The notes under the pieces are model-generated. The model searched no databases, was not told where the DNA came from, and saw nothing but the letters and a program-made list of their open reading frames with translations. Of a stretch of 64,000 bases of DNA, positions 7,121 through 60,003 are shown in pieces; the first letter of the stretch is position 1; every line of letters starts with the position of its first letter. Made by a program: the position numbers and the translations under genes. The DNA comes from an uncultured Candidatus Cloacimonadota bacterium (GTDB taxonomy: Bacteria; Cloacimonadota; Cloacimonadia; Cloacimonadales; JAJBBL01): the NCBI GenBank assembly GCA_964490765.1, contig CAZBDV010000001.1:145437-209436 (forward strand). Reading direction: 5' to 3'.

Positions 7121-7129
7121 ATATACCTC

Positions 7130-7210: not shown

Positions 7211-7288
7211 TTCTCCTCCAGTTTCTAAACTCATTAAAAATCACTTCTATCTCTTGCTCGCAAATACAAGTATCTCTCTTCTCGTAGC

Positions 7289-7792: not shown

Positions 7793-8065
7793 ATGAAACG
7801 AGAAGAATTGTTAGCTAAGATGGCAGCAGATGCTGGTATCACCAAGAAAGCTGCAGGGGCAGCATTAAATTCCTTCATGGAAGGAGTAATGACTTCATTG
7901 AAGAAAGGTCAGAAAGTAGCCTTTGTCGGTTTTGGAACATTTGATGTCAGCAAGCGCAAAGCTCGTAATGGGATCAATCCTCAAACACGCAAAAAGATTA
8001 AGATTCCGGCAAGAAAGGTCCCCGTTTTCAGAGCAGGAAAAAAACTGAAGGACATAGTTAAGTAG
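7793..8065 (+). CDS. hup: HU family DNA-binding protein
   Basis: 90 aa. GFGTFDVSKRKARNGINPQTRKKIKIPARKVPVFRAGKKLK is the classic HU arm. SD GAGGAGG lies upstream. Confidence 0.9.
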   Translation: MKREELLAKMAADAGITKKAAGAALNSFMEGVMTSLKKGQKVAFVGFGTFDVSKRKARNGINPQTRKKIKIPARKVPVFRAGKKLKDIVK

Positions 8066-8081
8066 TTTCTATCACGGAGAA

Positions 8082-8118
8082 GAAAAGCAAGGGTGTCTAA
8101 CTCTTGCTTTTCTTTTAT
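8082..8118 (+). terminator. Rho-independent terminator after hup
   Basis: Stem GAAAAGCAAG / CTTGCTTTTC followed by a T-rich tail. Confidence 0.6.
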
Positions 8119-8157
8119 CTTAATTAACGACAAAATTATAAAAAGAGGATAAATATC

Positions 8158-9291: not shown

Positions 9292-9292
9292 G

Positions 9293-43335: not shown

Positions 43336-44190
43336 ATGAAAAAGAGTTTATTTTTAATGGTCTTTGTAGTAGTGATTTTAATGTTGTCGATAAATTTTAT
43401 TGCAGCAACTACTAATATCCCTGAAATTTATACGACTATGTCGTCAGATAATGAGCCTGAATCAACCAATCATAATGATCAATGTAATCTCCTTAGCGAT
43501 TACGAAATCTACTGTCCTCTGTCTCTCGATAAAGACATGATTCTATTTGATAATTCATCACCCTCTGTTGAACTTTCGCTATTTAATATAGCCATAACGG
43601 GTAATCTTCATGTTCAGTTACAATGGACTGCCGAGACGGAGACTCATATGCTTGGTTATAATGTATTCCGTAGCCAGGTTGAGGAAATTGCTGAGTCTCA
43701 AAAGATCAATAACAAACTTATAGGTGCTTACAATAGTTCCACTCCAACTGATTATTCCTACGTAGATGTTGAAGTTAATTCAGGTGAAACCTATTATTAT
43801 TGGTTAGAATTCTACGATACCAACATGACAAGCCAGTTTTACGGACCGATTTCTGTCCTGGTTAATGAGAAAGAAGAAGATCCTGTTTCTCCGGAGGCTC
43901 TATTAAAGACCAAGCTTATCGGTTCCTATCCGAACCCCTTCAATCCAGGAACTTATATAGCTTTCTCACTGGATGAGACAGCGAGGGTTACGATCTCGAT
44001 CTATAATAATCTAGGTCAGTTAATCAGGACTCTGACAGCGAATCGGGAATTTGAGGCTGGCAGGCAGCATTCCGTTTACTTCGACGGTAAAAACCATCAA
44101 GGGAAAGACATTACATCTGGTATCTATTTCTATATCTTGAAAACAGATACTGGTTACAGAGAAGCGAGGAAGATGCTTCTACTAAAATAG
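43336..44190 (+). CDS. Secreted protein with an Fn3-like module and a T9SS C-terminal sorting domain (short relative of the GLUG paralogues)
   Basis: Signal peptide. LQWTAETETHMLGYNVFRS...YYYWLEFYD module. The CTD YPNPFNPGTYIAFSL...GIYFYILK...KMLLLK is very similar to that of 45144..47051. Confidence 0.8.
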   Translation: MKKSLFLMVFVVVILMLSINFIAATTNIPEIYTTMSSDNEPESTNHNDQCNLLSDYEIYCPLSLDKDMILFDNSSPSVELSLFNIAITGNLHVQLQWTAETETHMLGYNVFRSQVEEIAESQKINNKLIGAYNSSTPTDYSYVDVEVNSGETYYYWLEFYDTNMTSQFYGPISVLVNEKEEDPVSPEALLKTKLIGSYPNPFNPGTYIAFSLDETARVTISIYNNLGQLIRTLTANREFEAGRQHSVYFDGKNHQGKDITSGIYFYILKTDTGYREARKMLLLK

Positions 44191-45143: not shown

Positions 45144-47051
45144 ATGAAACGCATTTTATTTATCTTTGTTGTCCTGACTTTCCTCGGGACAGTTAATATC
45201 TTCGCTCAGACTGAAATCTGGACAGCAGGAGAACTAGATAACATCCGGAGTAGTAACATTACCCTCAGTAGTGATTATATCCAGATGACCGATATTACTC
45301 TCGCAGGAGATTGGGATCCTATTGGTACAGAGAGTGTTCCATTCACAGGTACTTATAATGGTAACGGATATGAAATCATTGGTCTCAACAGCACTATAGG
45401 TGGATTGTTTGGAGTAACCGAGGACGCATTCATAATGAATGTCGCTCTAAACAACATATCGATTGCAACAATGAGTGGAACTGTTGGTGGACTTGTCGGA
45501 CACGCTAAAAATACCAGAATCGAGAACTGTTATACAGGTCCTTTCGGTAAGATCGAGCAACTCGATATTTCGGGAGGCGGAGGTGATGTTGGTGGCTTAG
45601 TAGGTATCCTGGAAGGTACCGCTCTTGGTGATAACGATGAGTTTATCTCATATATCAAAAACAGCTACAATCAAGTTACGGTTTCAGGAGATAACAGAGT
45701 AGGTGGATTAGTCGGAAGCACATTAATCTGGCCGAATGGATTAGAACGTTATAGCTGGATCTATCGCTGTTACAATATTGGACCTGTGGTTGATAGTGAT
45801 AAGGTGGGTGGCCTGATTGGTATGAATGCTGAAGGAAGCAAAATTGAAGAGTGCTGGAGTGCCAATACGGTTCAAGCAGAACAGCAGGTCGGTGGTTTAG
45901 TAGGTATTAATTACGGACATATCCTCAATTGTTACTCTATCTGTGGACGGCCAGTTATAGGTGATTATGTTGGTGGTCTGGTTGGTGTAAATTACGCAAG
46001 TGGAGTAGTAGAAAACTGTTATAGCAGCAGAGTAGTACAACTTGCAGGAGAAATGCAGCATCCCGGTGGTCTTATTGGTTGGGGTGCCCCTGGCCAGACT
46101 CCACCACCACCTACTGAGCCATCAGGTTATGGTGAAGTAATCAATAGTTATTGGTGTGTTGAACGTTCCGGAGTCGATTCTCTGGGTTATAGTACAAATT
46201 ATGATATTCTGTATCTTTCCGGAAAGTTAGGTGCGGCAAGGACTCAGGACGAGATGGCTGTACAAATTTATGCTACTAACACATACGTTACCTGGCAAGC
46301 TGACTGGTACGATGATAATCCCTATATATGGGAAGCTACTTTATCTGACGGACCAAGCCTGGGATATCCAGTATTAGCAGATGTGCCTTTTGTCTGGAAT
46401 TGTCATTTTGATGTACCGCTACCCGTAGAACTATCATCCTTCACAGCAATAGTCATATCAACCGGCGCAGTCAATCTGGAATGGCGGGCAGAGACAGAAA
46501 CCAATGTCCTCGGTTATAATGTTTATCGATCCGAATATAATGATCTTGGTGATGCTGTAAAGATCAACGGTCCTGTTATCATTGCCAATAACAGTTCTAC
46601 TCCGTCTAACTATTCATTTCTCGATGAAGAGATCATACACGGGTCAACCTATTATTACTGGCTGGAGTCGGTAGATCTTGACCTTTCCAACGCCTTCCAC
46701 GGCCCTGTTTCGGTCCTGATAGCCTATGATGATGATGATGATGATAATGATATTCCCGAGATTCCCTTAGTAACGGAATTGATAGGTGCTTATCCAAATC
46801 CGTTTAATCCAGGAACACACATCAAATTCTCACTCGAAGAGACTTCCAGTGTCACAATTGTCATCTATAATGTACGTGGACAGTATGTTAAAACACTGGC
46901 ATCAAACAGAGAATTCGAAAAAGGGAGAAATCATACACTATTTTTCGACGGTAAGAATCATCTTGGTAAGGAAGTAAAATCTGGAGTTTATTTCTATATA
47001 ATGACAACCGAAGATTATCGCGAAGTGAAGAAGATGCTCCTGTTAAAATAA
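45144..47051 (+). CDS. Secreted GLUG-motif repeat protein with an Fn3-like module and a T9SS C-terminal sorting domain (paralogue 2)
   Basis: Signal peptide. VGGLVG repeats collinear with 5213..7120. Poly-Asp linker. CTD YPNPFNPGTHIKFSL...GVYFYIM...KMLLLK. Confidence 0.8.
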   Translation: MKRILFIFVVLTFLGTVNIFAQTEIWTAGELDNIRSSNITLSSDYIQMTDITLAGDWDPIGTESVPFTGTYNGNGYEIIGLNSTIGGLFGVTEDAFIMNVALNNISIATMSGTVGGLVGHAKNTRIENCYTGPFGKIEQLDISGGGGDVGGLVGILEGTALGDNDEFISYIKNSYNQVTVSGDNRVGGLVGSTLIWPNGLERYSWIYRCYNIGPVVDSDKVGGLIGMNAEGSKIEECWSANTVQAEQQVGGLVGINYGHILNCYSICGRPVIGDYVGGLVGVNYASGVVENCYSSRVVQLAGEMQHPGGLIGWGAPGQTPPPPTEPSGYGEVINSYWCVERSGVDSLGYSTNYDILYLSGKLGAARTQDEMAVQIYATNTYVTWQADWYDDNPYIWEATLSDGPSLGYPVLADVPFVWNCHFDVPLPVELSSFTAIVISTGAVNLEWRAETETNVLGYNVYRSEYNDLGDAVKINGPVIIANNSSTPSNYSFLDEEIIHGSTYYYWLESVDLDLSNAFHGPVSVLIAYDDDDDDNDIPEIPLVTELIGAYPNPFNPGTHIKFSLEETSSVTIVIYNVRGQYVKTLASNREFEKGRNHTLFFDGKNHLGKEVKSGVYFYIMTTEDYREVKKMLLLK

Positions 47052-47313: not shown

Positions 47314-50028
47314 TCACTCAGGTTGGAAGAGCCTGTAACCCTGCAGTTCACCCTCGCCCAGGCCAAAATGGAGAAACTGGTCGTTCTGGGATGTAGTGCC
47401 TCTACCACCGAAGAGTTCTCTGATCAGGGTTCTTCTACTGCCGTCGGGAAGTAGGATCTCGACCTCGACCTTGCTCCCGAAGGCTGGTGAATTGGGCATA
47501 GACTCCTGCCACTCCTCTCTCGTGGAAATTTTCACCTCCTCACCATCCCAGTAGGGTTTGATGAAGAGAGACCGAAAATCGTTTTCCGTATCGTTACGGA
47601 ATATTTTTACTCCGTTACCACTACCCACGATCAGGTCAAGCTTACCGTTACAATTCAGGTCAGCAACTGCATTACCCCAGCCATTATAGGTTCGTGTTCC
47701 CGACAGCCAGGTGATATCGGTGAAGGTGCCGTCACGGTTGTTAAGATAAAGATAGCTCCGGTCGTTTTCATAGACCGAGGTGATATAAATGTCTAAAAAG
47801 CCGTCATTATCAGCATCGAACCAGTTGGGGTCGGAATGGAGTTCATCGAAGGTAATACCTGCTTCCTCTGTTACATCGGTGAATTTATGATAGACAATGG
47901 TTGTATCTCCGATAGTTCGTTCGGACAGTCCATCATTACGAAGGAGCATGCTGATATCAGAGAATTCAATAAAACGTGGATGGGCCAGATTGGCGATGAA
48001 AAGATCCAGCCTGCCATTGTTATTGAAATCACCCCAGGCAGCACCTATTGTATGGCCGTAATAATCGTAATCTCCACCAGATCTATATCTGTTTCCAGCT
48101 AATCTATTTAATGCTGCCCGATCATGAAACATTCCCTCTTCGTATTCCCAGAAAAAGTTACGGTTTAAGCGATAATTACTTACAAATATTGATTGTCTGC
48201 CGTCATTGTTATGATCAGCAGGAGAGACACCCCTTCCTGCCATCCCTGGCTCTCTTGTATATGCTGGTGAGAGAAAACCGAGCTCTGTAATTTTATCATA
48301 AAAAACACCTCTGTTATTGTACCAGAAATGGTCCTGAAAACCGTGCTGTACCTGCCAGAGTTCATAACTGGCAGTATAGAGTGATGGGTAGCCAGTATTC
48401 TCGAAATCTATCCAGGCTGCACCTTCTGTCGGGGCAAAATCGTTAATATCTGCTCCTTCACTATCGAGGGGAAGGAATCTTCCATCGTCAAGATTTCTGA
48501 ACAGTGTATTACCAGGTCCTTCGATCGAGGATGAGAGAGCTGCAAAATCGAGCAGGCCATCTTTATCGAAATCTGCCCATAAGCCACCTGTAAATGAGTA
48601 GTTGACTATACCTGTATCTTCGGTCAGTTCTGTGAAAGACATAGCTCCCTCATTACGATAGAGCCTGTGACCGTTAAAGAGTAGATCAGGTAGTGTATCA
48701 TTGGTATAATCGCCAATGGCAATTCGACGAAACCGTAAACCATCGAAACCGGCTTCTTCAGTAATATCGGTGAAGACCGGTCCCTTGTAGTTCTTGATCC
48801 TACGGCTCCAGTCCATGATATTATCATCTGTTCTCACTTCCTGATGCAGTAATTCGAGATAACTCAAAGCTGAAGCATCAAACCTTTTCCGCGGTGCTCC
48901 GGCTATCAGGCAATCGATGAAATACTCAGCAGTCTTCAAAGGATCGGTATCATTATCGAGTAGTATGGCGAATCTACCCAGCCAGTAATTCTGTCCGGCA
49001 ATTTCTCCGAAATCGTTATTGGTAACATCTCTGGATTTCAATAGCGCAAAACCTCTGTAAAAGTATTCATCAGGCTGCTCGATAATTCTGGCTATTCTGT
49101 CCTCATCACCCCAGAACCCTTTAGCGGAGATTGTAAGATAGTAATATACTTTTGCCAGTTGCAGATCTCTCTTCTGTTCCCAGTACTTTCGGTCCCATTT
49201 CTGATAAAGTATGGATACGAAATCCTTATCATCAGGAAAATATGATTCTGTAACTAACTCTGCTGCTCTGAACAACAAGTTACTACTTTCTTGATCATCA
49301 AACGAACTGCGGAAACCTGGATCTGTGAGAAGACCGGCCAGAAGAACAGCCAGTGGTGCAGATATCTCGGGAAACGAGTCGATTTCATCTACTATGCGTT
49401 CATATTCCTCAAGATTGAGATACGAGATAAGTCTGTAATATATATTCGTATCCTGCCAGCTGGAATTGGGAAACTTTAGTAGAAAATCTTCGCTCAAAGA
49501 AACTCTCAGGCTATCGTTATGCTCAACTGCAATTTCATCTATAAAACGCTGAATATAATTATCGAATAGAACTGGGTAGTGAGAGAAATCCCGCATCTCA
49601 GAAAAGAGAGTCTCTTCGTCTATCTCGCCTAGTGCATGCTCCAGAATCAGTCTCTCTGACGGTAATTTGAAAAAAGTTCTGATTTGTTCTATCTGGTCTT
49701 TCTTAGATTCTATTGAAAGCTCATCTGTTTCATTTTCGCTATATATAGTGAAGAGTCGGAATGCATCCTCAAGTTCTTTCAAGTTCAGTACTTTTAACTC
49801 GAGGTTTTCTACTATTACAGTACTATCCTGTCTGGCCAGGGCTATATCCTCCATCATATCATATAGTATAATTTCTTGTGGAGATTGTTCTATTTGCTCC
49901 CTGATAACAGATTCTGGAATCTCCCATAGCTCACGCTCATAACAGAATCTCAGTTCTTCGATAGTTAGAGCCGCTACAGAGATGGTGGAATATATGAGCA
50001 GAAGGAAGAATAATACAAGAGTTCTCAA
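47314..50028 (-). CDS. Secreted CRTAC1-like protein: helical N-terminal region, FG-GAP/VCBS repeats and a C-terminal ASPIC/UnbV domain
   Basis: Signal peptide. Repeated Ca-binding-type loops (DFDKDGLLDF, GDFNNNGRLDLFIAN, DADNDGFLDIYITS, ADLNCNGKLDLIVGS). UnbV-like tail (GSKVEVEILLPDGSRR...GRGTTSQNDQFLHFGLG). Confidence 0.75.
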   Translation of the reverse strand: MRTLVLFFLLLIYSTISVAALTIEELRFCYERELWEIPESVIREQIEQSPQEIILYDMMEDIALARQDSTVIVENLELKVLNLKELEDAFRLFTIYSENETDELSIESKKDQIEQIRTFFKLPSERLILEHALGEIDEETLFSEMRDFSHYPVLFDNYIQRFIDEIAVEHNDSLRVSLSEDFLLKFPNSSWQDTNIYYRLISYLNLEEYERIVDEIDSFPEISAPLAVLLAGLLTDPGFRSSFDDQESSNLLFRAAELVTESYFPDDKDFVSILYQKWDRKYWEQKRDLQLAKVYYYLTISAKGFWGDEDRIARIIEQPDEYFYRGFALLKSRDVTNNDFGEIAGQNYWLGRFAILLDNDTDPLKTAEYFIDCLIAGAPRKRFDASALSYLELLHQEVRTDDNIMDWSRRIKNYKGPVFTDITEEAGFDGLRFRRIAIGDYTNDTLPDLLFNGHRLYRNEGAMSFTELTEDTGIVNYSFTGGLWADFDKDGLLDFAALSSSIEGPGNTLFRNLDDGRFLPLDSEGADINDFAPTEGAAWIDFENTGYPSLYTASYELWQVQHGFQDHFWYNNRGVFYDKITELGFLSPAYTREPGMAGRGVSPADHNNDGRQSIFVSNYRLNRNFFWEYEEGMFHDRAALNRLAGNRYRSGGDYDYYGHTIGAAWGDFNNNGRLDLFIANLAHPRFIEFSDISMLLRNDGLSERTIGDTTIVYHKFTDVTEEAGITFDELHSDPNWFDADNDGFLDIYITSVYENDRSYLYLNNRDGTFTDITWLSGTRTYNGWGNAVADLNCNGKLDLIVGSGNGVKIFRNDTENDFRSLFIKPYWDGEEVKISTREEWQESMPNSPAFGSKVEVEILLPDGSRRTLIRELFGGRGTTSQNDQFLHFGLGEGELQGYRLFQPE

Positions 50029-50056
50029 TCTCTACTTACCCAGATTAATTTCCATC

Positions 50057-51058
50057 TTATCTTTCCTTATCGATATGCTCAATAATCTTTTCAACGACCG
50101 TCTTAGCTTTCATCCCCTCCGCTTCAGCAGCGAAAGAGATAATAACTCTGTGTTGTAAAACAATAGCCGCTACCCTTCTGACGTCTGCTTCCGAGGGGGT
50201 CGCTCTACCTTCCAGAGCTGCCCTTGTCTTCGCTGCCAGTACTAGATACTGAGAAGCTCGTGGTCCGGCACCCCAGCTAACCCATCTCTTGACGAAATCT
50301 GCAGCTTCTGGATATTCAGGACGAGATGCTCTCGCCAGTTTTACAGCATAATCCAGAACATGTTCACTTACCGGTAGGCTAAGAATCATCTTCTGCATTT
50401 CTATTATTTCAGGGGCTGAGAGAACAGGCTCAATCTCTTCAGGTATGCCACCTGTAGTTCTGATCACTATCTCTCTCTCCTCGTCATAAGAGGGGTAATA
50501 GATGTTGATATTGAACATGAATCTATCCAACTGTGCTTCCGGTAGAGGATATGTCCCCTCCTGCTCGATTGGATTTTGAGTAGCCAGCACAAGAAAAGGC
50601 TGGTCGAGATGATAGGTTGTATTTCCTGCTGTCACCTGATACTCCTGCATTGACTGTAAAAGGGCAGCCTGAGTCTTGGGTGGTGTACGATTAATCTCGT
50701 CGGCCAGAATGACATTGGAAAAGATCGGGCCTTTAATGTATTCGAAATATCTTTTACCGTCCGCCTTACTCTCAGCCAATATATCGGTTCCTGTGATATC
50801 AGAAGGCATCAGGTCGGGTGTAAATTGTATTCTGCTAAACTTAAGATTCAGAGCCTTTGATAGGCTTGAGATCAGAAGTGTTTTTGCCAGACCGGGTACA
50901 CCCTCAACCAGACAGTGCCCATGAGCAAAAAGGGCAATCAGTATTTCTTCAATCACCCTGTCCTGACCTATTATAACCTTTCTTATCTCTTTTAGAACTC
51001 TTTCTCTATCTGTCTTTAACTTCTCAAGCATCGCAATTCTGTTCTTCTCATCACTCAT
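50057..51058 (-). CDS. MoxR-family AAA+ ATPase
   Basis: IIGQDRVIEEILIAL..GHCLVEGVPGLAKT, RIQFTPDLMPSDITG. Start at MSDEK (SD AAGGAG 9 nt upstream) overlaps the upstream stop by 8 nt. Confidence 0.85.
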   Translation of the reverse strand: MSDEKNRIAMLEKLKTDRERVLKEIRKVIIGQDRVIEEILIALFAHGHCLVEGVPGLAKTLLISSLSKALNLKFSRIQFTPDLMPSDITGTDILAESKADGKRYFEYIKGPIFSNVILADEINRTPPKTQAALLQSMQEYQVTAGNTTYHLDQPFLVLATQNPIEQEGTYPLPEAQLDRFMFNINIYYPSYDEEREIVIRTTGGIPEEIEPVLSAPEIIEMQKMILSLPVSEHVLDYAVKLARASRPEYPEAADFVKRWVSWGAGPRASQYLVLAAKTRAALEGRATPSEADVRRVAAIVLQHRVIISFAAEAEGMKAKTVVEKIIEHIDKER

Positions 51059-52055
51059 AAAAATCATCTCCTTTCTTCATTATCGTCATAAGCCTGACTC
51101 CAGCATAACTATAAGCAAAGATACCAATAGTTACGATGATCAAACCTGTCAAGATATGTGAAAATAGCATGATAGCCCCTGACAATTCAGCCTGCATTCC
51201 AAAACCAGCAGCAAATATCAGGGTCATTATCAGTTCATTACTCCCCAGCTGAGCTGGTGGATGTGGTATTATATATGATAGATAAATAAGGGTATAACCA
51301 AGTAGAACATAGAAGTAATTGACTTCGGTAGAGAAAGCCTGAAACAGGGAAAAAAAGAAAAAGCTGTCGAATAGAATTGCTCCAATAGAGAAGATTATTA
51401 CAGGAAATATCAGATGTTTCTGATTCTTGAATACTGCAAGGCCATCTACAAATAGAGACAGCGTTTCATCCAACTTATCTTCATATCTGACCGGCACGAA
51501 GAAGCAGATTTTTTTCAGAATACCAACCACCTTTTCTCCAGCATAGATTGCAGTAAAGAGAATAAAGAGACCGATAAGGAGAATTAACAGAATGATGAAT
51601 ATCAAAATCGTCAACAGGGGGGGGAGAGATACTGAAAGTATGGGGACGAGCAGGAGAACAAAGAGTATGCCTATTGTATCGAAAAGTTTATCGATAAATA
51701 CGGAAGGTAATGTACTCGTCATTCTCGTTCCATATAGCTTCTTAACAAAATAACATTTCATCAATTCTCCCGCTCTCAGGGGGATGATATAATTGGTGAA
51801 ATTTCCAGCCATAAGTATCAGGAAGGATTTCGATCGGGAAATCGGTTGTACACGGTGTAAAAGAAGTCTCCATCGAAGCGATCTGAAATAGTAAGCTGAG
51901 ACATAAAAAGCCGCAGCAATAAGCACATAAAGTAGCTTAAGATTCTGCAAATAGTATCTTATGGTCGCGATGTCAACAAAGCGGAACCAGATCAGGAGAA
52001 AAATTACTCCGATTCCTGTCCCAACCAAGATCGTTCGTAACTTACTTTTCATCAA
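51051..52055 (-). CDS. UPF0104 / lysylphosphatidylglycerol-synthase-TM-region-like integral membrane protein
   Basis: 334 aa and multi-TM. Family-like signature FRSLRWRLLL...GNFTNYIIPLRAGELMKCYF. Confidence 0.6.
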   Translation of the reverse strand: MMKSKLRTILVGTGIGVIFLLIWFRFVDIATIRYYLQNLKLLYVLIAAAFYVSAYYFRSLRWRLLLHRVQPISRSKSFLILMAGNFTNYIIPLRAGELMKCYFVKKLYGTRMTSTLPSVFIDKLFDTIGILFVLLLVPILSVSLPPLLTILIFIILLILLIGLFILFTAIYAGEKVVGILKKICFFVPVRYEDKLDETLSLFVDGLAVFKNQKHLIFPVIIFSIGAILFDSFFFFSLFQAFSTEVNYFYVLLGYTLIYLSYIIPHPPAQLGSNELIMTLIFAAGFGMQAELSGAIMLFSHILTGLIIVTIGIFAYSYAGVRLMTIMKKGDDFYE

Positions 52056-52117
52056 ATCTCTTTATCTATCCTTTCTCCATAAAACAATTGAAACAGCAGT
52101 TCAATAACAAAACAACA

Positions 52118-52966
52118 CTAACTGCTCTCGGTTTTTCTAATGTAAAGATAATAATGGTGATGAGCCCAGAACCGTTTCAATATTTCTGGTAGTTTCCTTT
52201 CCAGGCCATTATACTTTAACATTCGTTGCGTAAAATTTTCATCCCTTCCACGATAAAAACTCATAATCGATGTTCCCTTTGTCTCATCAGCATCTTTGTC
52301 GAGAAGAAAACCGAGATAGAGTTTCTTCAGAAAGTGCTCTTTCTTCATACCAATATCGGGCCAGGGTGGACAATCTATCAGCCTCTCCTCTGCCAATTTC
52401 CAACCAAGATTACTCATTATTCTGGAGAAACAGGAGTATTTTATCGAATCAGTATCTACTACTTCTTTATAGGTCTTCTTGCTCATTATCTTCTGCATTA
52501 AAAACCCGGGACCAGTCCTATTCGGTACGATGATAAGTATTATCTTCTTTGAAACTCTGTCCAATTCAGCGAGGAAACTCTCAATATCTTTAACAAACCA
52601 AAGTGCAGAGAAATTCCAGCTCATATCGAACTCATAATCGTTAACCGGTAGAGAGGTAAAGTTTTCCGAATACTTAAGATTCACCGGCAGTTTGCACTCT
52701 TTCCATAACTTTTCTATCATTACCAATCGTTCACTATTGTCATCGGTCAGAGTTATCTCTTTTCCCTCCTGGGCCATATTCATGCTGTTAATCCCCGAAA
52801 TACCTGTAAAACCAAAGATTGGTGCTTCCAGAACAGTTTTTACATCGTGTTCCTGGCAAATCCTTGTCAGGTGTTGATTAAGGATTACCCTTTCATAAGA
52901 TGAACCGAGCCCTTCATTCTCGTTTTGAAAATAATTTTTCCAATCATCAATAATTGGTATAGCCAT
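52118..52966 (-). CDS. Hypothetical protein, possibly a Rossmann-fold methyltransferase-like protein
   Basis: 282 aa. Topology resembles class I MTases (VLEAPIFGFTGISG ... ITLTDD ... FDMSWNFSAL ... ILIIVPN) but the glycine motif is atypical. Confidence 0.45.
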   Translation of the reverse strand: MAIPIIDDWKNYFQNENEGLGSSYERVILNQHLTRICQEHDVKTVLEAPIFGFTGISGINSMNMAQEGKEITLTDDNSERLVMIEKLWKECKLPVNLKYSENFTSLPVNDYEFDMSWNFSALWFVKDIESFLAELDRVSKKIILIIVPNRTGPGFLMQKIMSKKTYKEVVDTDSIKYSCFSRIMSNLGWKLAEERLIDCPPWPDIGMKKEHFLKKLYLGFLLDKDADETKGTSIMSFYRGRDENFTQRMLKYNGLERKLPEILKRFWAHHHYYLYIRKTESS

Positions 52967-53001
52967 TTCTCTCCCCTACCTGCTGACAATGTTCTGCTGT
53001 T

Positions 53002-53986
53002 TTACTTTATGCTATGAGTCTTTTTATACCAGTCCACAACTACCTTGAAATCCGGTATCGTCTTAGCATGCCGTAAAAATAGATCCTTAAAAGCATCAGA
53101 ACAGTCATAGAACCAGCTGTTACTGATCAACTTGATTCGATTATGAAAATTATGCAACCCGTGTTTTTCTGCAAAACGAGCTAATCTGCGGAATATTTTA
53201 ACAGAGATATACCTGTTACCTGGATAATCTCTCTTATACAAACGATTGCTGATGAAATCTACCAGTTCGTCTAATTGAACGGGATACCGATCAGGCAATA
53301 TTGTAAATTTTGTTACCTCTGAACTCATCTTCTGCAAGCTTATAGAAAGCGTCTGCTACGATATCAATATTGGCCAGGTGGATTATCTTCGTTATGTCGG
53401 GTAGAAAAATTAGCTTCCTGTGCACCAGTTTCACAAGTGTATAGGGAAATCCATAATCATCTTCACCATAAGTAATGGCAGGTCGGATAATAACTGCTTT
53501 CAGACCAGCCAGTGCATGCTTCTGTATAATAGACTCTGCCTTGATCTTGGTATCATGATATACATTGTCACCCTGATATTGAGTCTTGACTGTTGCAGGT
53601 AACTCCTGTGGTATAGCACCGTAAACCCCTACAGAAGAGCAAAAGAGCAATTTGCTCTCATTCTTTAATGATACCTCCGCGATCTGTTCAGTAGCCTTGA
53701 CATTGGTATCATAATAGATTCTTTTCGGATATTTTTTCCCACCTCTGAGAGCTCCGATATGGATAATAGTATCGAATTTTTCATGATTAAGAAAACTTCT
53801 CAATTTCTGTGTATCTGCCAGGTCAATTTTAATCAACTCAACGTTATTTGCGAGGAATTTGAGCCGCCTAGTTGACGTTCCTGGCCTTACAATAGCCGTA
53901 AAATTCGTCTTCTTGGCTATGAGTAACCGTGCAACATTGCTCCCGATAAATCCAGTCGCACCAGTTAATAGAATTCTGTTAGCCAT
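53002..53986 (-). pseudogene. NAD-dependent epimerase/dehydratase (extended SDR) split by a single-base frameshift
   Basis: ORF 53291..53986 has LLTGATGFIGSNV and ends ...GNKIYNIA-TGA. ORF 53002..53337, in another frame, continues with DRYPVQLDELVDFISNRL...VDWYKK, the expected SDR C-terminus. The combined length is about 328 aa. Confidence 0.65.
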
Positions 53987-54779
53987 TGTTGATTATTCTC
54001 AAGAGTCGATGAAATAAACTCTCAGTATCTCGATCTTTTCTGATAGGTTGAATTTCTGGATTCAAGAACTCAACAGGTTCATTTCTTAAAATCCGGGCAG
54101 GATTATCGCACATCAGCTTTTTCACCGGAACATCGGTATAGTTCTCCCTTAATAGATTCTCAAGAGTAGCGAGAGAATAGCTATCTGTCCTGCAATGATG
54201 ATCTGATGCAATAAAATGGATATAACCGTGGTGAAACATTTCCCATACTGTACTGGTGACAAGACTGCCGTATTCACCGAGAAAGCTGCCGGCATTGGCC
54301 TGCAGATAGACATTACGATGAATGAGTTCTTCAGCAATATTGATGTTTTTCATAATATCTATATATCTTTCGGGATGGGCCAGTATTGGTCTGAGGCCAT
54401 CTTTGACCATCTGATAGAGCATATCAAAAAGGTTGATGGGGAAACCGTGCATAGCGGTCTCTACAAGGACATAATCGCTGTCTGCCATCCTGAATTTATC
54501 GAAATCGATCATCTTGCCTCTCATTTGCGTAAGATATACTTCGATCCCGCTGATTAGATTAATACCTATACTCTCTTCGAGCGCAGCTTCTCTGAGGAGC
54601 TTTATTTCTCCACGGATAAGCGTTTTGGTATTATCATATTCACCCGGCATATAGTGAGGAGTGAGGAATATGTCAGTCACACCGCTATCCTGAGCCAATT
54701 TTAGTGCTTTTAGAGCATCTTCGATGTCCTCTGCTCCATCATCGATATAGGGTAAAATGTGGGTGTGAATATCAATCAT
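53979..54779 (-). CDS. CpsB/YwqE-type PHP-family metal-dependent phosphatase
   Basis: MIDIHTHILPYIDDGAEDIEDAL N-terminus, TPHY, HPERY and SDHH motifs. 4-nt overlap with the upstream GGGPS-like gene and 8-nt overlap with the downstream SDR gene. Confidence 0.75.
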   Translation of the reverse strand: MIDIHTHILPYIDDGAEDIEDALKALKLAQDSGVTDIFLTPHYMPGEYDNTKTLIRGEIKLLREAALEESIGINLISGIEVYLTQMRGKMIDFDKFRMADSDYVLVETAMHGFPINLFDMLYQMVKDGLRPILAHPERYIDIMKNINIAEELIHRNVYLQANAGSFLGEYGSLVTSTVWEMFHHGYIHFIASDHHCRTDSYSLATLENLLRENYTDVPVKKLMCDNPARILRNEPVEFLNPEIQPIRKDRDTESLFHRLLRIINNG

Positions 54780-55519
54780 TTTCTCAGGCTGTGTATTGCT
54801 TGAACGAATTCCGATAACAATCTCTGATCGTTGTTCTTTTCCAGAACTGTACCGGTTACTATGATGTCTGCTCCCGCCTCAGCTATGACAGTTGCTTTCT
54901 CGGGAGTTCGTATCCCTCCTCCTACAATGATGGGAAGGTCGGTTGTTGACCTGGCCTGCTTGATCATGTCCACCGGAACCGGCCTTTCTGCACCGCTACC
55001 AGCTTCTAGATAAATCATCTTCATCCCGATATATTCAGCAGCCATTATATGAGCTGCGAGGATATCAGGCTTATCTCGCGGAATTGGAAGACTATTACTA
55101 ATATACTGCACTGATGTAAGTTTCCCTGATTCTATGAGAATATAAGCTGTACTGATTGCTTCCAGGCCATTTTTTCTTATTAGTGGTGCGGCTCTTACCT
55201 GTTCACCTATCAATAATTGTGCATTCCGGCTGCTTATCATATTTAGGAATAGTATCGCATCTGCATGTGGTGAAAAGGTGTTTAAAATCCCGGGAAAGAT
55301 CAGGAGGGGTATTTTGATCTGTTCCTTCAATTTCTTGATACAGTCACTTACTTCTCTGTGCATCAGTATACTGCTCCCGATTAATATCCCGTCGACGCCA
55401 AGCTTTTCAGCTTTCTGAGCAAGGTGAAAAGCCTCATCAGGACCACTCTTATCAGGATCTATCAGAATGAAATATGCCGGTTTAGGCATGTTGATCAGTT
55501 TTTTATAGATGTGATTCAT
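54776..55519 (-). CDS. Geranylgeranylglyceryl-phosphate synthase-like protein (PcrB/GGGPS family)
   Basis: 247 aa TIM-barrel-type protein. FILIDPDK, GVDGILIGSS, IYLEAGSGA, IIVGGGIRTPEKA. Confidence 0.75.
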   Translation of the reverse strand: MNHIYKKLINMPKPAYFILIDPDKSGPDEAFHLAQKAEKLGVDGILIGSSILMHREVSDCIKKLKEQIKIPLLIFPGILNTFSPHADAILFLNMISSRNAQLLIGEQVRAAPLIRKNGLEAISTAYILIESGKLTSVQYISNSLPIPRDKPDILAAHIMAAEYIGMKMIYLEAGSGAERPVPVDMIKQARSTTDLPIIVGGGIRTPEKATVIAEAGADIIVTGTVLEKNNDQRLLSEFVQAIHSLRK

Positions 55520-55565
55520 AATTTATACCTTTTATTTGACTCGCTTGTTTCCTTCTTTAGCTCAA

Positions 55566-56405
55566 TTATCCTATAAATATCAATACAAACAACAGTACCA
55601 ACATATGTAGCTTTATGAGTGTGGACGATTCGTTTAGTTTACTGGAAGTTATATTACGAAACAGATTGACGTATATAAGTAGAAGTGGGATAGTATATAG
55701 TAAAAATACTACCCAAAAACTTGTCTGTGTACTAATAACGCTGGAGAGTCGCATCCCGTAACCTATCACCAGTAAACCGGCAAGTATAACTGCCGGAATT
55801 AAAGATATTAGAACAGCTTTCTGTTCTCCATAGATAGTTGCCAGTGTTTTGACCTGTAATCTCTCGTCTCCTCTTTTATCTTCTGCATCTTTAACTATTT
55901 CTCTTACTAAAGTATACAAGAGCGTATAGGCAAAGATCGGAAGAATATTTGTAACATTGTTTCCGACAACAGCTCCGAAAAGAAAAGTACTAGCTGTGGT
56001 ATAAGAGACTACAATATTGCCCACTAGCACTGATCTTTTCAGCTTTTTCGCATAGAAATAGAGAAGTAACGAATTGATAATAGCTATAATTATAGCCCAG
56101 ATATTGGCTGTGAAGAAGCTGAGCGAAAAGCCCAATACAAAGAGAAACAATGAATAGAGGTAGGCACGTTCCGGGGCAATTTTTCCTCTCGGCATAATAC
56201 GCTGTGGTTTATTGACTATATCTATATGGAGATCATAGAAATCGTTAATAACATAACCACCGGCTGCAATAAAAATAGCCGAAAGAATAGCAAAGATCAT
56301 TGCTGTAAAATCAACCATATAATTGTTTAAAAGCCCTCCGGCCAATACTGCCAAACCTATGAAGAGACAGTTAAAAGGCCTGATAATCATTAGATAATAT
56401 TTCAC
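55566..56405 (-). CDS. UbiA-family prenyltransferase, digeranylgeranylglyceryl-phosphate synthase-like
   Basis: 279 aa, about 8 TM. First Asp-rich motif NDFYDLHIDIVNKPQRIMPRGKI. Second motif DAEDKRGD. 4-nt overlap with the upstream polyprenyl synthase. Confidence 0.65.
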   Translation of the reverse strand: MKYYLMIIRPFNCLFIGLAVLAGGLLNNYMVDFTAMIFAILSAIFIAAGGYVINDFYDLHIDIVNKPQRIMPRGKIAPERAYLYSLFLFVLGFSLSFFTANIWAIIIAIINSLLLYFYAKKLKRSVLVGNIVVSYTTASTFLFGAVVGNNVTNILPIFAYTLLYTLVREIVKDAEDKRGDERLQVKTLATIYGEQKAVLISLIPAVILAGLLVIGYGMRLSSVISTQTSFWVVFLLYTIPLLLIYVNLFRNITSSKLNESSTLIKLHMLVLLFVLIFIG

Positions 56406-57292
56406 AGTGGTATTCGTTCCCTTATCATATATATGTATTCAACCAATATCTCGTTAGAGGGCATATTCTTGATCAATTTATAAGAGTCATCGAGCAGCTT
56501 TTCTGCTGTTCTTCTCGCTTTATCCAGGCCAAGAATGGCTGCATAGGTGGCTTTGTTATTCCGAGCATCTTCTCCCGGTTCTTTGCCCAAAATCTCACTG
56601 GTTCCAATCTCATCGAGGATATCATCGATAATCTGATAGGCTAATCCGACATTGAGGGCAAAGTTCTCCAGTGCTAAAATAACATTTTCTTCCGCTTCAC
56701 CCATAACACAGGCCAGATCTATCGCTGCCTTTAATAATGATCCTGTCTTCTTCAAATGTATGTATTTGAGAACATTTATTCGTGCTTTAGCACTGGTAAC
56801 CATTACATCTACAGTCTGTCCCCCTATCATACCTCTGGTCGAAATCTCTCTTGCAAGGACATTGATACAGGTAATAGCTTTTTTTGAATTATTTATATTG
56901 GTCAAGACTTCGAATGCCTTGGTTAAGAGAGCATCACCTGCAAGGATAGCAGTTGCTTCTCCAAATTTCTTATGACAGCTGAGTTCACTTCTTCTCAGAT
57001 CAGAATTATCGATACTGGGAAGATCATCATGTATCAGAGATGCGGTATGAACCATCTCCAGAGCACAGGCAGCCGGAACAATTGGTTGCAGCATCGAAGC
57101 GTTACGTTTCTCCTTCAGCATCTCATAAGTAGCGAAGAAGATTATCGGTCTGAGTCTCTTGCCACCAGAAAAGATCGAATAATGCATCGCTTCATACAGC
57201 GGTTCTGGATATTCATTTACCGGTGTCAAATACTCTTTCAACGCTTTTTCTACAATCGATTTTCTTGAGTCGAAATATTTCTCTAATACCAA
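56402..57292 (-). CDS. Polyprenyl diphosphate synthase (probably geranylgeranyl-PP synthase)
   Basis: TTG start. FARM LIHDDLPSIDNSDLRR with small residues (A,S) at positions -5/-4. SARM QIIDDILD. Confidence 0.8.
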   Translation of the reverse strand: MVLEKYFDSRKSIVEKALKEYLTPVNEYPEPLYEAMHYSIFSGGKRLRPIIFFATYEMLKEKRNASMLQPIVPAACALEMVHTASLIHDDLPSIDNSDLRRSELSCHKKFGEATAILAGDALLTKAFEVLTNINNSKKAITCINVLAREISTRGMIGGQTVDVMVTSAKARINVLKYIHLKKTGSLLKAAIDLACVMGEAEENVILALENFALNVGLAYQIIDDILDEIGTSEILGKEPGEDARNNKATYAAILGLDKARRTAEKLLDDSYKLIKNMPSNEILVEYIYMIRERIPL

Positions 57293-57337
57293 AATCTACC
57301 TCTCTTCTTGTTTGTCAAAACTCCTCTCGTTATTAAT

Positions 57338-58372
57338 CTATACAGACAGCGGGAGATCGACCTTCTTCCCGGTGCGTGACGATTGATAAAAGGCTAAAAT
57401 AATTTCCAGTGACTTTCTGCCGTCTCTTCCGTTTGTATGAGGACTGTTTTTCCCATTCATAGCCTCTACGATATTTAGATAATAGGGTAAATGCCCAGAA
57501 CCGTAGACTGTCAATGGCTGATAATTAACCTCTTCTAACAATCTGTCATCGTCATCATAATCCTCGAATTCCCACTTATCGACTTTATTTAGTGCTATAC
57601 CACCAATCTTTACAGAACCCTTTTCTCCCAGAATGGTAATTGAGCCTTCATAATTCTTGGGAAAGGTCAACATAGTAACATTGATAGTACCTATAGCACC
57701 ATTAACAAATCTAAGAATAGCTGTTCCTGTGTCTTCAGTCTCTATGTTACGTGCCATTGTAGCAGTCTCTGCCATCACTGACTTGACATCTCCTATCAAC
57801 CAGTATAGGCCATCAACATAATGACTTGCCTGATTAAGAAAAGCTCCCCCGTCGTATTTCCATGTCCCTCGCCAGGAAGCCATATCATAATAGGACTGTG
57901 GTCTTTGCCAGAAAACATTAGATTGCACAAGATATATTCTGCCGAACCTGTTTTTCTCTATCGCCCTTTTCAGTAACTGCATTGTTGGATTGAGCCTATT
58001 TTGTTTCACAACAAAGAGATGTACTTTATTGTCATCACAGCTCTGGATCAATTTATCAGCAGACTCGAGATCTGTTCCCATAGGTTTTTCAGTAAGAACA
58101 TTGATCCCTCTCCTAGCAGCTTCAATGCCAATCTCAGGATGCAGGCTGCTCGGTGTGCAAATTACTACAAGATCAATTTTCTCCTTGTCCAGCATCTCTT
58201 TGTAATCAGCATAATAGGTCTTGAGTTCAAAATTCTCAGCAGCAGCAGCAGCTCTTTCGGGGATGATATCTGCGCAGGTAACAAAACAGGCTTCATTCAG
58301 ATTCTCAACTGCTTCAAAATGCTTGCCGGATATCCTTCCGCAACCTATTAATCCCATTCTGATAACCTTCAT
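57338..58372 (-). CDS. Gfo/Idh/MocA-family NAD(P)-dependent oxidoreductase
   Basis: N-terminal Rossmann MKVIRMGLIGCGRISGKH. EKPM motif (LTEKPMG). 344 aa. First gene of the operon. Confidence 0.8.
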   Translation of the reverse strand: MKVIRMGLIGCGRISGKHFEAVENLNEACFVTCADIIPERAAAAAENFELKTYYADYKEMLDKEKIDLVVICTPSSLHPEIGIEAARRGINVLTEKPMGTDLESADKLIQSCDDNKVHLFVVKQNRLNPTMQLLKRAIEKNRFGRIYLVQSNVFWQRPQSYYDMASWRGTWKYDGGAFLNQASHYVDGLYWLIGDVKSVMAETATMARNIETEDTGTAILRFVNGAIGTINVTMLTFPKNYEGSITILGEKGSVKIGGIALNKVDKWEFEDYDDDDRLLEEVNYQPLTVYGSGHLPYYLNIVEAMNGKNSPHTNGRDGRKSLEIILAFYQSSRTGKKVDLPLSV

Positions 58373-58479
58373 TCCAACTCCTTTTTGTTCAAATCAAGTA
58401 ACTACATGTCCCGACGAAAAAAACTAATCCAGCAGACAAACTATTTGAACCTGATGAAAAGTTCTTTCCAAGTTAGTTC

Positions 58480-58508
58480 TATTAAGGGTTTACTGTTAAA
58501 ATTGTCAA
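58480..58508 (-). promoter_or_regulatory. Sigma70-like promoter (TTGACA-N17-TTAATA) for the long minus-strand operon
   Basis: Minus strand reads TTGACA ATTTTAACAGTAAACCC TTAATA, about 105 nt upstream of the ATG at 58372. Confidence 0.45.
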
Positions 58509-58785
58509 CTAATAAATATGTTATGAACTTTGCAATACAGTGAAGGGCTTTAATTTATTTAAATCACTCTTTTGCTGCTATGTATAGAAAAGTGGATCAT
58601 TTTATCTTCTCTCTACAGTCTTTCTACCTCCATATGGTTAAGTATGGCTTCTTAAACTTTCTCAGAGCATCTGATAAATCGTATGATAATCGTGCGGTAT
58701 TCTATAAATGATGTTCAGTCTGTTTAAGCGAAGAAACTCTTTGACAAAAGTTTCGTTTAAAATATGTTGTTGAATGGAGGATGAA

Positions 58786-59226
58786 ATGAAACGAGTATTG
58801 CTTACAGGCTTGTTCATACTGCTGGTATCAGCTATCCATATCTATGCTGAGCCACTGGGAAGTAATTTAGAAGCTCCCTATATAAACCTTAATGGAATCC
58901 TTAATCCCTCCAATATAAAAATGAATCATACAATGTCATTTATGACAGGTATGTCGTCCGGTGGAGAAGGATATTATCAGTCAGTTTACACCAATCATCT
59001 TCTCTTTGATTTGCATCCCAAAATCGATCTACAACTCGACCTGAACTTTGTCAATTACGGCACAGCAAATTGGGATAGCAATTTTTCGGTTAAAGCTAAT
59101 GACGATAATCAGAGTCAGATTTTACCGGAATTTTCGCTTCAATACAGACCTACTGAGAGAACGAGTATCCGAGTAGAATTCCGTTCCATGAAACCCTATC
59201 AGAGGAACGATAACTGGTGGTGGTAA
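58786..59226 (+). CDS. Small secreted hypothetical protein (beta-rich, ends in WWW)
   Basis: Start at the ATG 5 nt after GGAGG gives signal peptide MKRVLLTGLFILLVSAIHIYA. No family recognised. Confidence 0.55.
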   Translation: MKRVLLTGLFILLVSAIHIYAEPLGSNLEAPYINLNGILNPSNIKMNHTMSFMTGMSSGGEGYYQSVYTNHLLFDLHPKIDLQLDLNFVNYGTANWDSNFSVKANDDNQSQILPEFSLQYRPTERTSIRVEFRSMKPYQRNDNWWW

Positions 59227-59229
59227 TAG

Positions 59230-60003
59230 TTGCTCGTTTACCTTGAGATACTATTCATAATAATACTCGGCTCTTCTCTGGGAAGTTTCTTTAATGTTTG
59301 CATATATCGTCTGCCCAGGAAAGAGTCTATAGTCTTTCCTGCATCTTATTGTCCAGCCTGTTCCAACCCGATCCCGAAATGGCTTAATATACCCCTGATC
59401 GGTTATTTTCTGACCCTTGGCAAATGCAGAAACTGTGGTACTAAAATCCACTGGCATTATCCTTTAGTAGAGTTCCTGACAGCTTTACTTTTTTTGTTAC
59501 TCTTCCTTCGTCTCGATGCTCAATTCTCCTTTCTCTTCTTCAAGTATGCTATCCTGATAGGGTTTTTCATCATTATCTTCTTTATAGACAGTTTTCATAA
59601 GATCATACCAGATATACTTTCTCTACCATTGATACCCCTGGGTATTCTTTCTGCTCTACATCCGTTCAACGATGTAAGCCTGTTTTCTTCTATTGTTGGT
59701 GGTGCAGCAGCTTTCTTACTCTTCTATATCATTTCACTCGCTTACTGGAAACTTACTGGTAAGATCGGTCTCGGTGGAGGTGATATAAAACTAATCGCTG
59801 GTATCGGCACATTTATCGGGATTGCAGGAATCCTCTTCTCGATACTGGTTTCCTCGATAATTGCTGTTGTTGTTATGCTGCTTATCAGATATGATTTGAG
59901 GAAGGAGTTTCCTTTTGGCCCCTTTTTGATTTCAGGAACTCTACTCTATATATTCCTGGGCTATGTTATTATTGATTGGTATCTGAATCTATTTTTGCTC
60001 TGA
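59230..60003 (+). CDS. Type IV prepilin peptidase (A24 family)
   Basis: TTG start. Zinc-ribbon region CPACSNPIPKW...CRNCGTKI. Catalytic GGGDIKL motif. Multi-TM. Confidence 0.8.
   Translation: MLVYLEILFIIILGSSLGSFFNVCIYRLPRKESIVFPASYCPACSNPIPKWLNIPLIGYFLTLGKCRNCGTKIHWHYPLVEFLTALLFLLLFLRLDAQFSFLFFKYAILIGFFIIIFFIDSFHKIIPDILSLPLIPLGILSALHPFNDVSLFSSIVGGAAAFLLFYIISLAYWKLTGKIGLGGGDIKLIAGIGTFIGIAGILFSILVSSIIAVVVMLLIRYDLRKEFPFGPFLISGTLLYIFLGYVIIDWYLNLFLL

Follow-up and report, generated by a model that had tools for sequence, protein, structure and literature searches.

The stretch of DNA analysed here (the window) comprises 64,000 nucleotides of contig CAZBDV010000001.1 from an uncultured Candidatus Cloacimonadota bacterium (assembly GCA_964490765.1). 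Three adjacent open reading frames (ORFs) on its minus strand, at positions 54776-57292, are very probably the core biosynthetic genes of an operon by which an archaeal-type isoprenoid glycerol diether lipid is made in Cloacimonadota, bacteria that also make bacterial lipids. A sequence-only reading had proposed an archaeal-type ether-lipid gene triad in an otherwise bacterial chromosome; the positions of the ORFs are exactly as claimed there, and profile and pairwise scoring support its overall interpretation. In the order of transcription the genes are:

56402-57292, minus strand: short-chain trans-isoprenyl diphosphate synthase (IDS), 296 aa (PF00348, 193 bits, E=5.6e-57)
55566-56405, minus strand: UbiA-superfamily prenyltransferase, predicted digeranylgeranylglyceryl phosphate (DGGGP) synthase (DGGGPS), 279 aa (PF01040, 120 bits, E=1.2e-34)
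54776-55519, minus strand: PcrB/GGGPS protein, predicted group II geranylgeranylglyceryl phosphate (GGGP) synthase (GGGPS), 247 aa (PF01884, 152.5 bits against a cut-off of 23.9, E=1.6e-44)

All the motifs that had been quoted for these proteins were found in the translations (LIHDDLPSIDNSDLRR, NDFYDLHIDIVNKPQRIMPRGKI, DAEDKRGD, YLEAGSGA and GGGIRTPEKA). The motifs for catalysis and substrate binding are complete in all three proteins and are kept in 11-12 orthologues. The triad is already known in Cloacimonadota, where it was published and biochemically tested in 2021, and no new principle emerges from the window. The earlier remark that lineages of the Fibrobacterota-Chlorobiota-Bacteroidota (FCB) group carry homologues was correct but understated, as the exact gene set has been published for this phylum (PMC7852524). 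Villanueva et al. (ISME J 2021, PMC7852524) described four Black Sea Ca. Cloacimonetes metagenome-assembled genomes (MAGs), NIOZ-UU1 to UU4, in which GGGPS and DGGGPS were co-localised, with a polyprenyl synthase on the same scaffold. The scaffold across all three genes was re-amplified by PCR from water samples, and transcripts of GGGPS, DGGGPS and the polyprenyl synthase were detected in situ. It was also reported that the purified Cloacimonetes GGGPS formed GGGP from geranylgeranyl diphosphate (GGPP) with sn-glycerol-1-phosphate (G1P) and also with sn-glycerol-3-phosphate, and that co-expression of GGGPS and DGGGPS in E. coli gave phosphatidylglycerol-archaeol (PG-archaeol) carrying eight double bonds (PMC7852524). 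The heterologous expression and liquid chromatography-mass spectrometry that had been suggested for the present triad have essentially been done on this orthologous locus, with an archaeol-type lipid as the result. A geranylgeranyl reductase (GGR) was present in the NIOZ MAGs, egsA/araM and CarS were not found in them, and the bacterial enzymes CdsA and Pgs were proposed to complete the phospholipid (PMC7852524).

The assignment of the proteins to subgroups was based on the separation of scores among curated models and PDB structures, together with a neighbour-joining tree of bacterial loci. GGGPS scores 221.6 bits with the NCBIfam equivalog for GGGP synthase, TIGR01769 (cut-off 161.55), and 290 bits with the subfamily model NF003198 (cut-off 247), passing both, and fails the heptaprenylglyceryl phosphate (HepGP) synthase model NF003197 (33.8 bits, cut-off 260). 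Among solved structures it scores 194 bits with the group II GGGPS of M. thermautotrophicus (4mm1) and 178 bits with that of Flavobacterium johnsoniae (4jej), compared with ~36 bits for the HepGP synthases of Bacillus and Staphylococcus (4naf, 3vzx and 1viz) and 25 bits for the group I GGGPS of A. fulgidus (2f6u). Because of this separation across solved structures and curated models, the PcrB homologue of the window is placed in group II of GGGPS. The phosphate-binding loops YLEAGSGA and GGGIR are kept in 12 Cloacimonadota orthologues. Tyr139 aligns with Trp141 of the M. thermautotrophicus enzyme, the aromatic anchor which marks hexameric GGGPS enzymes; the dimeric GGGPS of Flavobacteriales, by contrast, are without this anchor (PMC7888582). 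By orthology with the Black Sea enzyme, the window GGGPS would use GGPP and G1P.

The UbiA protein is best matched by five archaeal DGGGPS/prenyltransferase models of NCBIfam (192-109 bits), and the models of other subfamilies score lower (ChlG 72.6, UbiA 46.7, heme O synthase 35.8 and homogentisate phytyltransferase 33 bits). Its best solved relative is the M. jannaschii DGGGPS (MjDGGGPS, 6m31), with 140 bits over residues 1-273, essentially the full length, against 45 bits for the chlorophyll synthase structure; there was no solved UbiA- or MenA-type quinone prenyltransferase among its four PDB matches at E <= 1e-3. The archaeal-type interpretation was to be given up if the PcrB homologue fell among the Bacillus heptaprenyl enzymes and the UbiA protein in a quinone or chlorophyll clade. 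By profile and pairwise scores, both proteins stood clearly on the archaeal side (194 vs ~36 bits for the former, DGGGPS 192 vs ChlG 72.6 bits for the latter). The claim of DGGGPS-like motifs was also borne out, with every residue reported to be catalytically important in MjDGGGPS (N62, D66, D70, the Y125-K motif, D180, D183 and D187; PMC9385802) being conserved in the window protein, as follows:

MjDGGGPS N62: window UbiA N54
MjDGGGPS D66: window UbiA D58
MjDGGGPS D70: window UbiA D62
MjDGGGPS Y125-K motif: window UbiA YAKKLKR
MjDGGGPS D180: window UbiA D173
MjDGGGPS D183: window UbiA D176
MjDGGGPS D187: window UbiA D180

The protein is therefore regarded as a predicted DGGGP synthase, which would form the second ether bond.

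The IDS passes the NCBIfam FPPsyn subfamily model NF045485 (302 bits, cut-off 275), and its best PDB matches are bacterial farnesyl diphosphate (FPP) and GGPP synthases, at ~210 bits. Its first aspartate-rich motif (FARM) is DDLPSID, with a 2-residue insertion, and its second (SARM) is DDILD; HTASLIHDDLPSID and IIDDILD are present. The small residues noted earlier in front of the FARM are Ala-Ser at positions -5/-4 and are invariant in 11 Cloacimonadota orthologues. In the housekeeping polyprenyl synthase of NIOZ-UU1, encoded beside xseB and dut, position -5 is Tyr (HTYSLIHDDLP), and the cluster IDS is only 39% identical to this paralogue. Mutagenesis of bacterial FPP synthases by Ohnuma and co-workers reportedly showed that Tyr or Phe at -5 limits the products to C15. 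Losing the aromatic residue at this position permits products of C20 or longer. Because of this rule and the Ala at -5, the IDS is best understood as dedicated to the cluster and making GGPP (C20 or longer), with a chain length predicted from sequence.

Taken together, the following route may be proposed. The cluster IDS, a paralogue of the housekeeping FPP synthase, would elongate its substrate to C20 (GGPP) or possibly further. Next, the soluble GGGPS of group II would join the geranylgeranyl chain to glycerol phosphate to give GGGP, as expected from its orthology, and the membrane-bound UbiA enzyme would add a second geranylgeranyl group, as its orthologue did when co-expressed in E. coli, to give DGGGP, the unsaturated archaetidic acid. 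Most likely, the triad, with its members translationally coupled or no more than 46 nt apart, is co-transcribed with at least four further conserved genes from a divergent region at 58.4-58.8 kb. After DGGGP, two continuations can be imagined. The product could be activated to the CDP form by bacterial CdsA and receive normal phospholipid head groups, as in E. coli, or it could be dephosphorylated and tailored by the products of the downstream genes.

Several points weigh against this interpretation. The GGGPS and DGGGPS activities are known from orthologues, and the locus in the window is known from its sequence alone. The IDS stays below the CrtE GGPP synthase equivalog (267 bits, cut-off 460), and the UbiA protein does not reach the cut-off of any DGGGPS equivalog in NCBIfam; its best model, PRK12882/NF009521, gives 192.1 against 296 bits, and the remaining ones 182 against 269, 133 against 353 and 109 against 278 bits. 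These equivalog models were built on archaeal lineages. The DGGGPS assignment therefore rests on best-match separation, motifs and orthology, and the protein is called DGGGPS-like rather than a curated equivalog. Moreover, G1P dehydrogenase (EgsA/AraM), CarS and geranylgeranyl reductase were not found by a Pfam search that took in every non-nested ORF of 120 aa or longer in the 64-kb window. Finally, Cloacimonadota were still without any pure culture in March 2026 (PMC13082233), and because of this a native ether lipid has never been tied to the phylum.

In comparison with the NIOZ-UU loci, the window has the same phylum, the same three enzyme families and a bacterial background, and egsA/araM and CarS are missing from both. 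It differs in coming from another species or strain, and the genes downstream of its GGGPS are unmentioned in the text of that paper. The archaeal pathway to the archaeol core (GGPP synthase, 4mm1-type GGGPS and 6m31-type DGGGPS) shares with the window the enzyme families, the catalytic motifs, the hexamer-type aromatic anchor of GGGPS and the predicted chemistry up to DGGGP. However, the host here is a bacterium with a fatty-acid lipid pathway, the genes lie in a tight operon with a PHP phosphoesterase, and the UbiA protein is under the archaeal cut-offs. B. subtilis PcrB/YvoF also represents a bacterial GGGPS-family enzyme making an isoprenoid glycerol ether, from which the phosphate is later removed, but there the enzyme belongs to group I, the donor is C35, a single ether bond is formed, a UbiA partner is lacking and the product is acetylated by YvoF. 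The group IIb GGGPS of Bacteroidota (F. johnsoniae, 4jej) is another bacterial one, a group II enzyme of the FCB group which uses GGPP; unlike the window, Bacteroidota and most other FCB loci examined have GGGPS without UbiA within 10 kb.

As to the arrangement of the genes, the 4-nt overlap that had been described between the IDS stop and the GTG start of UbiA (ctGTGA) can be read directly from the sequence. An in-frame ATG lies 15 nt downstream of the GTG and would leave an 11-nt gap instead; this start was chosen by one gene caller in a 99.7%-identical contig (L081), giving 274 aa. The 46-nt spacer between UbiA and GGGPS is purine-rich and, as previously stated, without a terminator-like hairpin. 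The extent given for the unit held only in part: the three genes stand, but the run does not end at GGGPS, the stop of which overlaps the start of the next gene, encoding the PHP protein, by 4 nt (aaATGAtt). The run has 10 co-directional genes between 58372 and 47314, spaced by -17 to +62 nt. In transcription order these encode a GFO/IDH/MocA oxidoreductase, IDS, DGGGPS, GGGPS, a CpsB/YwqE-type PHP phosphoesterase, an extended short-chain dehydrogenase/reductase (SDR), a class I methyltransferase (MT), an LPG_synthase_TM flippase-like protein, a MoxR ATPase and an FG-GAP protein. The features of this run outside the triad to which the discussion below refers are:

58373-58773, between divergent genes: intergenic region upstream of the run's first gene; no other gap along the run exceeds 62 nt
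57338-58372, minus strand: GFO/IDH/MocA NAD(P) oxidoreductase (PF01408, PF02894 and PF22725), 45 nt upstream of IDS
53979-54779, minus strand: CpsB/YwqE-family PHP metal-dependent phosphoesterase (PF19567, 181 bits)
53002-53986, minus strand: extended SDR (NAD-dependent epimerase/dehydratase), frameshifted (PF01370, 106 bits, N-terminal part)
52118-52966, minus strand: class I S-adenosylmethionine-dependent methyltransferase (weak PF08241 match)
51051-52055, minus strand: flippase-like integral membrane protein, LPG_synthase_TM/TIGR00374 (PF03706, 135 bits; TIGR00374, 116 bits, cut-off 43)
50057-51067, minus strand: MoxR-type AAA+ ATPase (PF07726, 208 bits), overlapping the flippase-like gene by 17 nt

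The region 58373-58773 is the presumed promoter region, and the sigma-70-like matches in it are not above chance. In a scan of 48000-60000, the terminator-like matches on the minus strand were all intragenic, and such matches are not clearly enriched in the region (12, against a shuffle expectation of 7.0 +/- 2.5). Nothing follows from the promoter and terminator scans beyond the absence of an obvious terminator. An Rfam scan of the whole window gave zero RNA families at threshold.

The conservation of the locus was studied in the ORFs of 82 fetched loci or contigs (labelled by L-numbers), searched by tblastn and then by profiles built from orthologues. Wherever a Cloacimonadota locus has enough flank (the window, L001-5, L007, L008, L018, L080-82 and L084/85), the block from IDS to the flippase-like gene, together with MoxR, is collinear, and at least 12 separate assemblies share one identical gene order. 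Among the named homologues of GGGPS, the closest come from Ca. Cloacimonetes/Cloacimonadota. When a single genome per species was scanned, Cloacimonadota MAGs again gave the top GGGPS matches, the nearest GTDB species representative being 70% identical. Metagenome contigs with 99.6-100% DNA identity carry the same genes wherever they overlap, and a 37-kb contig with an 85%-identical GGGPS retains the same order from the AI-2E transporter to a T9SS (type IX secretion system) cargo gene. In the neighbour-joining tree of GGGPS from the fetched bacterial loci, the 13 Cloacimonadota sequences formed one exclusive clade, and the cluster has a GC content (0.40-0.41) equal to the average over the window. 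Because of these relatives, the shared gene order, the exclusive clade and the matching GC content, the locus is judged to be native and vertically inherited in Cloacimonadota, and to represent neither contamination nor a recent transfer. A reduced block was seen in one Cloacimonadota contig (L016:8760-13504, JAOZMQ010000002.1), where a ManC-like nucleotidyltransferase gene, GGGPS, PHP, SDR and MoxR occur without IDS or UbiA within 10 kb upstream and without a methyltransferase or flippase-like gene.

The conserved PHP, SDR, MT and flippase-like genes were not part of the published expression constructs. The supplementary text of PMC7852524 never mentions a phosphatase, epimerase or flippase, and as far as can be told the extended block of PHP, SDR, MT and flippase-like genes is undescribed. 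The PHP gene directly follows GGGPS in 12 of the 12 Cloacimonadota loci. Its product scores 105 bits with B. subtilis YwqE (3qy6), and the N-terminal metal-binding motif DIHxHxLPxxDDG is intact and conserved. The characterised CpsB/YwqE members are protein-tyrosine phosphatases; a bacterial tyrosine (BY) kinase domain was not seen among the ORFs surveyed with Pfam in the 64-kb window. The B. subtilis PcrB product is dephosphorylated before acetylation, and a dephosphorylation of DGGGP has been proposed in Halobacteria (PMC9179154). By these precedents the PHP protein is a plausible candidate for a GGGP/DGGGP phosphatase, which is only a hypothesis. The best 120 PHP homologues listed are all from Cloacimonadota where named, and because of this the GGGPS-PHP pairing outside the phylum is known from the fetched loci alone. 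A second, unrelated PHP-domain protein (PF02811) is encoded outside the lipid block at 32767-33558 on the minus strand, overlapping the stop of an 826-aa TPR protein.

The SDR gene is split by 1 extra C at about 53295 (TTGCCTGA vs TTGCTGA, located by blastn), which brings a TGA into frame. L001, L084 and the contigs L081 and L082 (99.66% identical) have an uninterrupted SDR ORF of 327 aa. The identical frameshift occurs in a 99.96%-identical contig (L087), which may come from a related sample, and because of this the frameshift is probably a real allele and no random assembly error. If so, the SDR step would be dispensable or lost in the source strain. An analogy of the SDR and flippase-like pair with the hopanoid proteins HpnA and HpnL was considered and rejected, because HpnA reaches only 74 of the 367 bits required and the membrane protein has a match to the generic TIGR00374 alone. 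The flippase-like gene is collinear in all full Cloacimonadota loci.

For the methyltransferase, there were zero NCBIfam matches and zero PDB sequence matches. Of its 641 homologues, the best 120 were listed, and those with names all come from Cloacimonadota apart from one Calditrichia protein; as judged from these best 120 of the 641, the family appears almost confined to Cloacimonadota. Its AlphaFold2 model (pLDDT 86.6) gave generic class I matches with Foldseek (TM about 0.5). An assignment of function from the fold was abandoned, as the matches mix prenyl C-methyltransferases (TleD, BezA and FPP C6-MT) with sugar O-methyltransferases (RebM and AtmM). The exceptional Calditrichia homologue (L083:7024-11487, BAAHFM010000117.1; 49% identity) lies in the order SDR, MT, GT2, GT2, GT2 being family 2 glycosyltransferases, with a UDP-glucose dehydrogenase gene upstream and without GGGPS or UbiA. 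This context points toward sugar or glycan chemistry for the SDR and MT pair.

At the upstream end of the run, the oxidoreductase gene precedes IDS only in close relatives (L001, L080, L081, L084/85 and L088/89), and it appears to be a lineage-specific addition to the operon. To regard the oxidoreductase or the SDR as the absent G1P-forming dehydrogenase would be unsupported speculation, because the former is found only in close relatives and the latter is frameshifted in the window. At the other end, every Cloacimonadota locus has the MoxR ATPase in collinear position and at 62-87% identity; its place is probably in the Bat/MoxR module and not in lipid synthesis. In 47314-51067 on the minus strand, MoxR is followed by a 904-aa FG-GAP/ASPIC-UnbV protein which replaces the usual DUF58/VWA (BatA/B) partners; this arrangement is kept in L084/85.

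Outside Cloacimonadota, ~68 loci from other phyla carried GGGPS without UbiA within 10 kb, with L014 (Ca. Mcinerneyibacteriota, JAFGWL010000011.1) and L033 being the exceptions. In these two (L014:7773-11766 and L033:7785-11778), UbiA, a geranylgeranyl reductase (PF22578), GGGPS and a GT2/GT21 glycosyltransferase are encoded with overlapping stops and starts. They resemble the window in the co-localisation of a bacterial GGGPS with a DGGGPS-like UbiA, and differ from it in having the GGR and GT2/GT21 genes, in lacking IDS, PHP, SDR, MT and flippase-like genes, and in belonging to another candidate phylum. According to PMC7852524, only Cloacimonetes among bacteria have GGGPS and DGGGPS co-localised; L014 and L033 contradict this. 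Their gene content hints at a glycosylated, saturated ether lipid. The PHP gene lies directly downstream of GGGPS in L011 (Cytophagia), L037 (Latescibacterota), L047 and L074, and weakly so in L054. In L011:7306-11509 the order is alaS, GGGPS, PHP, and L047:5152-12518 has the GGGPS-PHP pair as well. Outside Cloacimonadota, GGGPS often follows an ORF of ~875 aa, which was confirmed as an alanyl-tRNA synthetase in L011. BatA, MoxR, SIS or FG-GAP genes are often near GGGPS-PHP in other FCB loci. GGGPS-PHP beside a Bat/MoxR aerotolerance module thus looks like an older FCB arrangement, to which IDS-DGGGPS and SDR-MT-flippase were seemingly added later, in Cloacimonadota.

Three other explanations have to be weighed against the archaeal-type diether pathway, two of which would replace it. 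One is a Bacillus-type PcrB pathway, in which G1P would receive a single C35 chain and become a monoether, with the UbiA protein acting in the prenylation of quinones, heme or chlorophyll. PcrB and GGGPS do share the Pfam family PF01884, the small residues before the FARM are also compatible with products longer than C20, and the IDS weakly matches heptaprenyl and octaprenyl synthase models (101-120 bits). However, the HepGP model gives only 33.8 bits where 260 are needed, the HepGP synthases in PDB reach ~36 bits against 194 for group II GGGPS, and the UbiA, MenA-type and heme O models reach at most 47 bits and ChlG 72, against 192 for DGGGPS. Furthermore, the IDS falls in the short-chain FPP/GGPP synthase group (302 bits) and outside the long-chain group, and the orthologous enzymes use GGPP (PMC7852524), all of which makes such a pathway highly improbable. 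As little credit can be given to an artefact, i.e. an archaeal fragment that was mis-binned or joined into a chimera, or to horizontal transfer from archaea in the very recent past. Otherwise, the set of enzymes is characteristic of archaea, but bacterial genes lie on both sides of it on one contiguous sequence without any anomaly in composition. Moreover, the same locus with its flanks occurs in many separate assemblies at 99.6-100%, 78% and ~70% nucleotide identity, the Cloacimonadota GGGPS are monophyletic, and the scaffold was re-amplified from water samples by Villanueva et al. (PMC7852524).

The third alternative concerns the fate of the product and is compatible with the three core activities. 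Natively, the pathway could end in an ether lipid that has lost its phosphate and been tailored, for instance an archaeol-type lipid in neutral, methylated or glycosylated form, or else in a lipid anchor, and in no bulk archaeal-type phospholipid; PHP would strip the phosphate from GGGP or DGGGP, and the SDR, MT and flippase-like protein would modify and translocate the product. In favour of this, the start of PHP overlaps the GGGPS stop, and PHP comes next after GGGPS in each of the Cloacimonadota loci, as it does in 4-5 loci of other phyla where UbiA is not adjacent. The whole block is collinear across the phylum, B. subtilis HepGP and the DGGGP dephosphorylation proposed for Halobacteria provide precedents (PMC9179154), a GT2/GT21 glycosyltransferase follows GGGPS in L014 and L033, and the SDR and MT pair adjoins GT2 genes in the Calditrichia contig. 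On the other hand, the PHP protein is a typical CpsB/YwqE member of a family in which those characterised act on protein tyrosine, and the block is without a glycosyltransferase or acyltransferase. The SDR is frameshifted in the window and in L087, so its step would be dispensable or lost, the fold search for the MT cannot separate prenyl from sugar methyltransferases, and L016 is without the MT and flippase-like genes and without IDS or UbiA within 10 kb. Adjacency alone is also no proof of function. A tailored product is therefore considered possible but rather doubtful. The fuller proposal that the published Cloacimonadota locus of two or three genes is in truth a seven-gene pathway, with PHP, translationally coupled to GGGPS, as an ether-lipid phosphatase yielding the free alcohol and the SDR, MT and flippase-like proteins tailoring and exporting it, is regarded as unlikely.

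Archaeal- and bacterial-type lipid pathways that co-exist in a single cell are relevant to the 'lipid divide', to models of LUCA (the last universal common ancestor) and to eukaryogenesis, and the original Cloacimonetes report drew attention because of this bearing. What the archaeal-type diether pathway gains from the present analysis is the confirmation of its locus as a stable, vertically inherited and phylum-wide operon. Also gained are the conserved accessory genes (PHP, SDR, MT and flippase-like), which could set the real head group and localisation of the lipid, and the finding that co-localised GGGPS and DGGGPS are not unique to Cloacimonadota. Should the seven-gene pathway be true, the native product would be a specialised neutral or decorated archaeol-type lipid and not the PG-archaeol obtained in E. 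coli, and the 'mixed membrane' interpretation would need revising.

The surroundings of the locus are bacterial, as had been pointed out. The window carries genes for HU (7793-8065), dnaN, recF, murJ, uvrC, tsaD, panD/panC and thrS, and further bacterial neighbours encode a KpsF-like SIS and CBS protein, T9SS cargo proteins with Por_Secre_tail domains and a prepilin peptidase. HU, dnaN and recF (7121-10369) come after a 670-bp gap, where the cumulative GC skew reaches its minimum, which suggests a position near the replication origin; dnaA is not adjacent, and DnaA boxes of the E. coli type are not enriched (20, against 20.2 expected). A 1379-aa protein encoded at 13-4152 on the minus strand matches PPDK_N and PEP-utilizers only in its C-terminal third, its N-terminal ~900 residues being without a Pfam match. 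The three T9SS cargo proteins, with Por_Secre_tail/CHU_C sorting domains, are encoded at 5213-7120 on the minus strand and at 43336-44190 and 45144-47051 on the plus strand, and two of the three are 635-aa paralogues with GLUG motifs.

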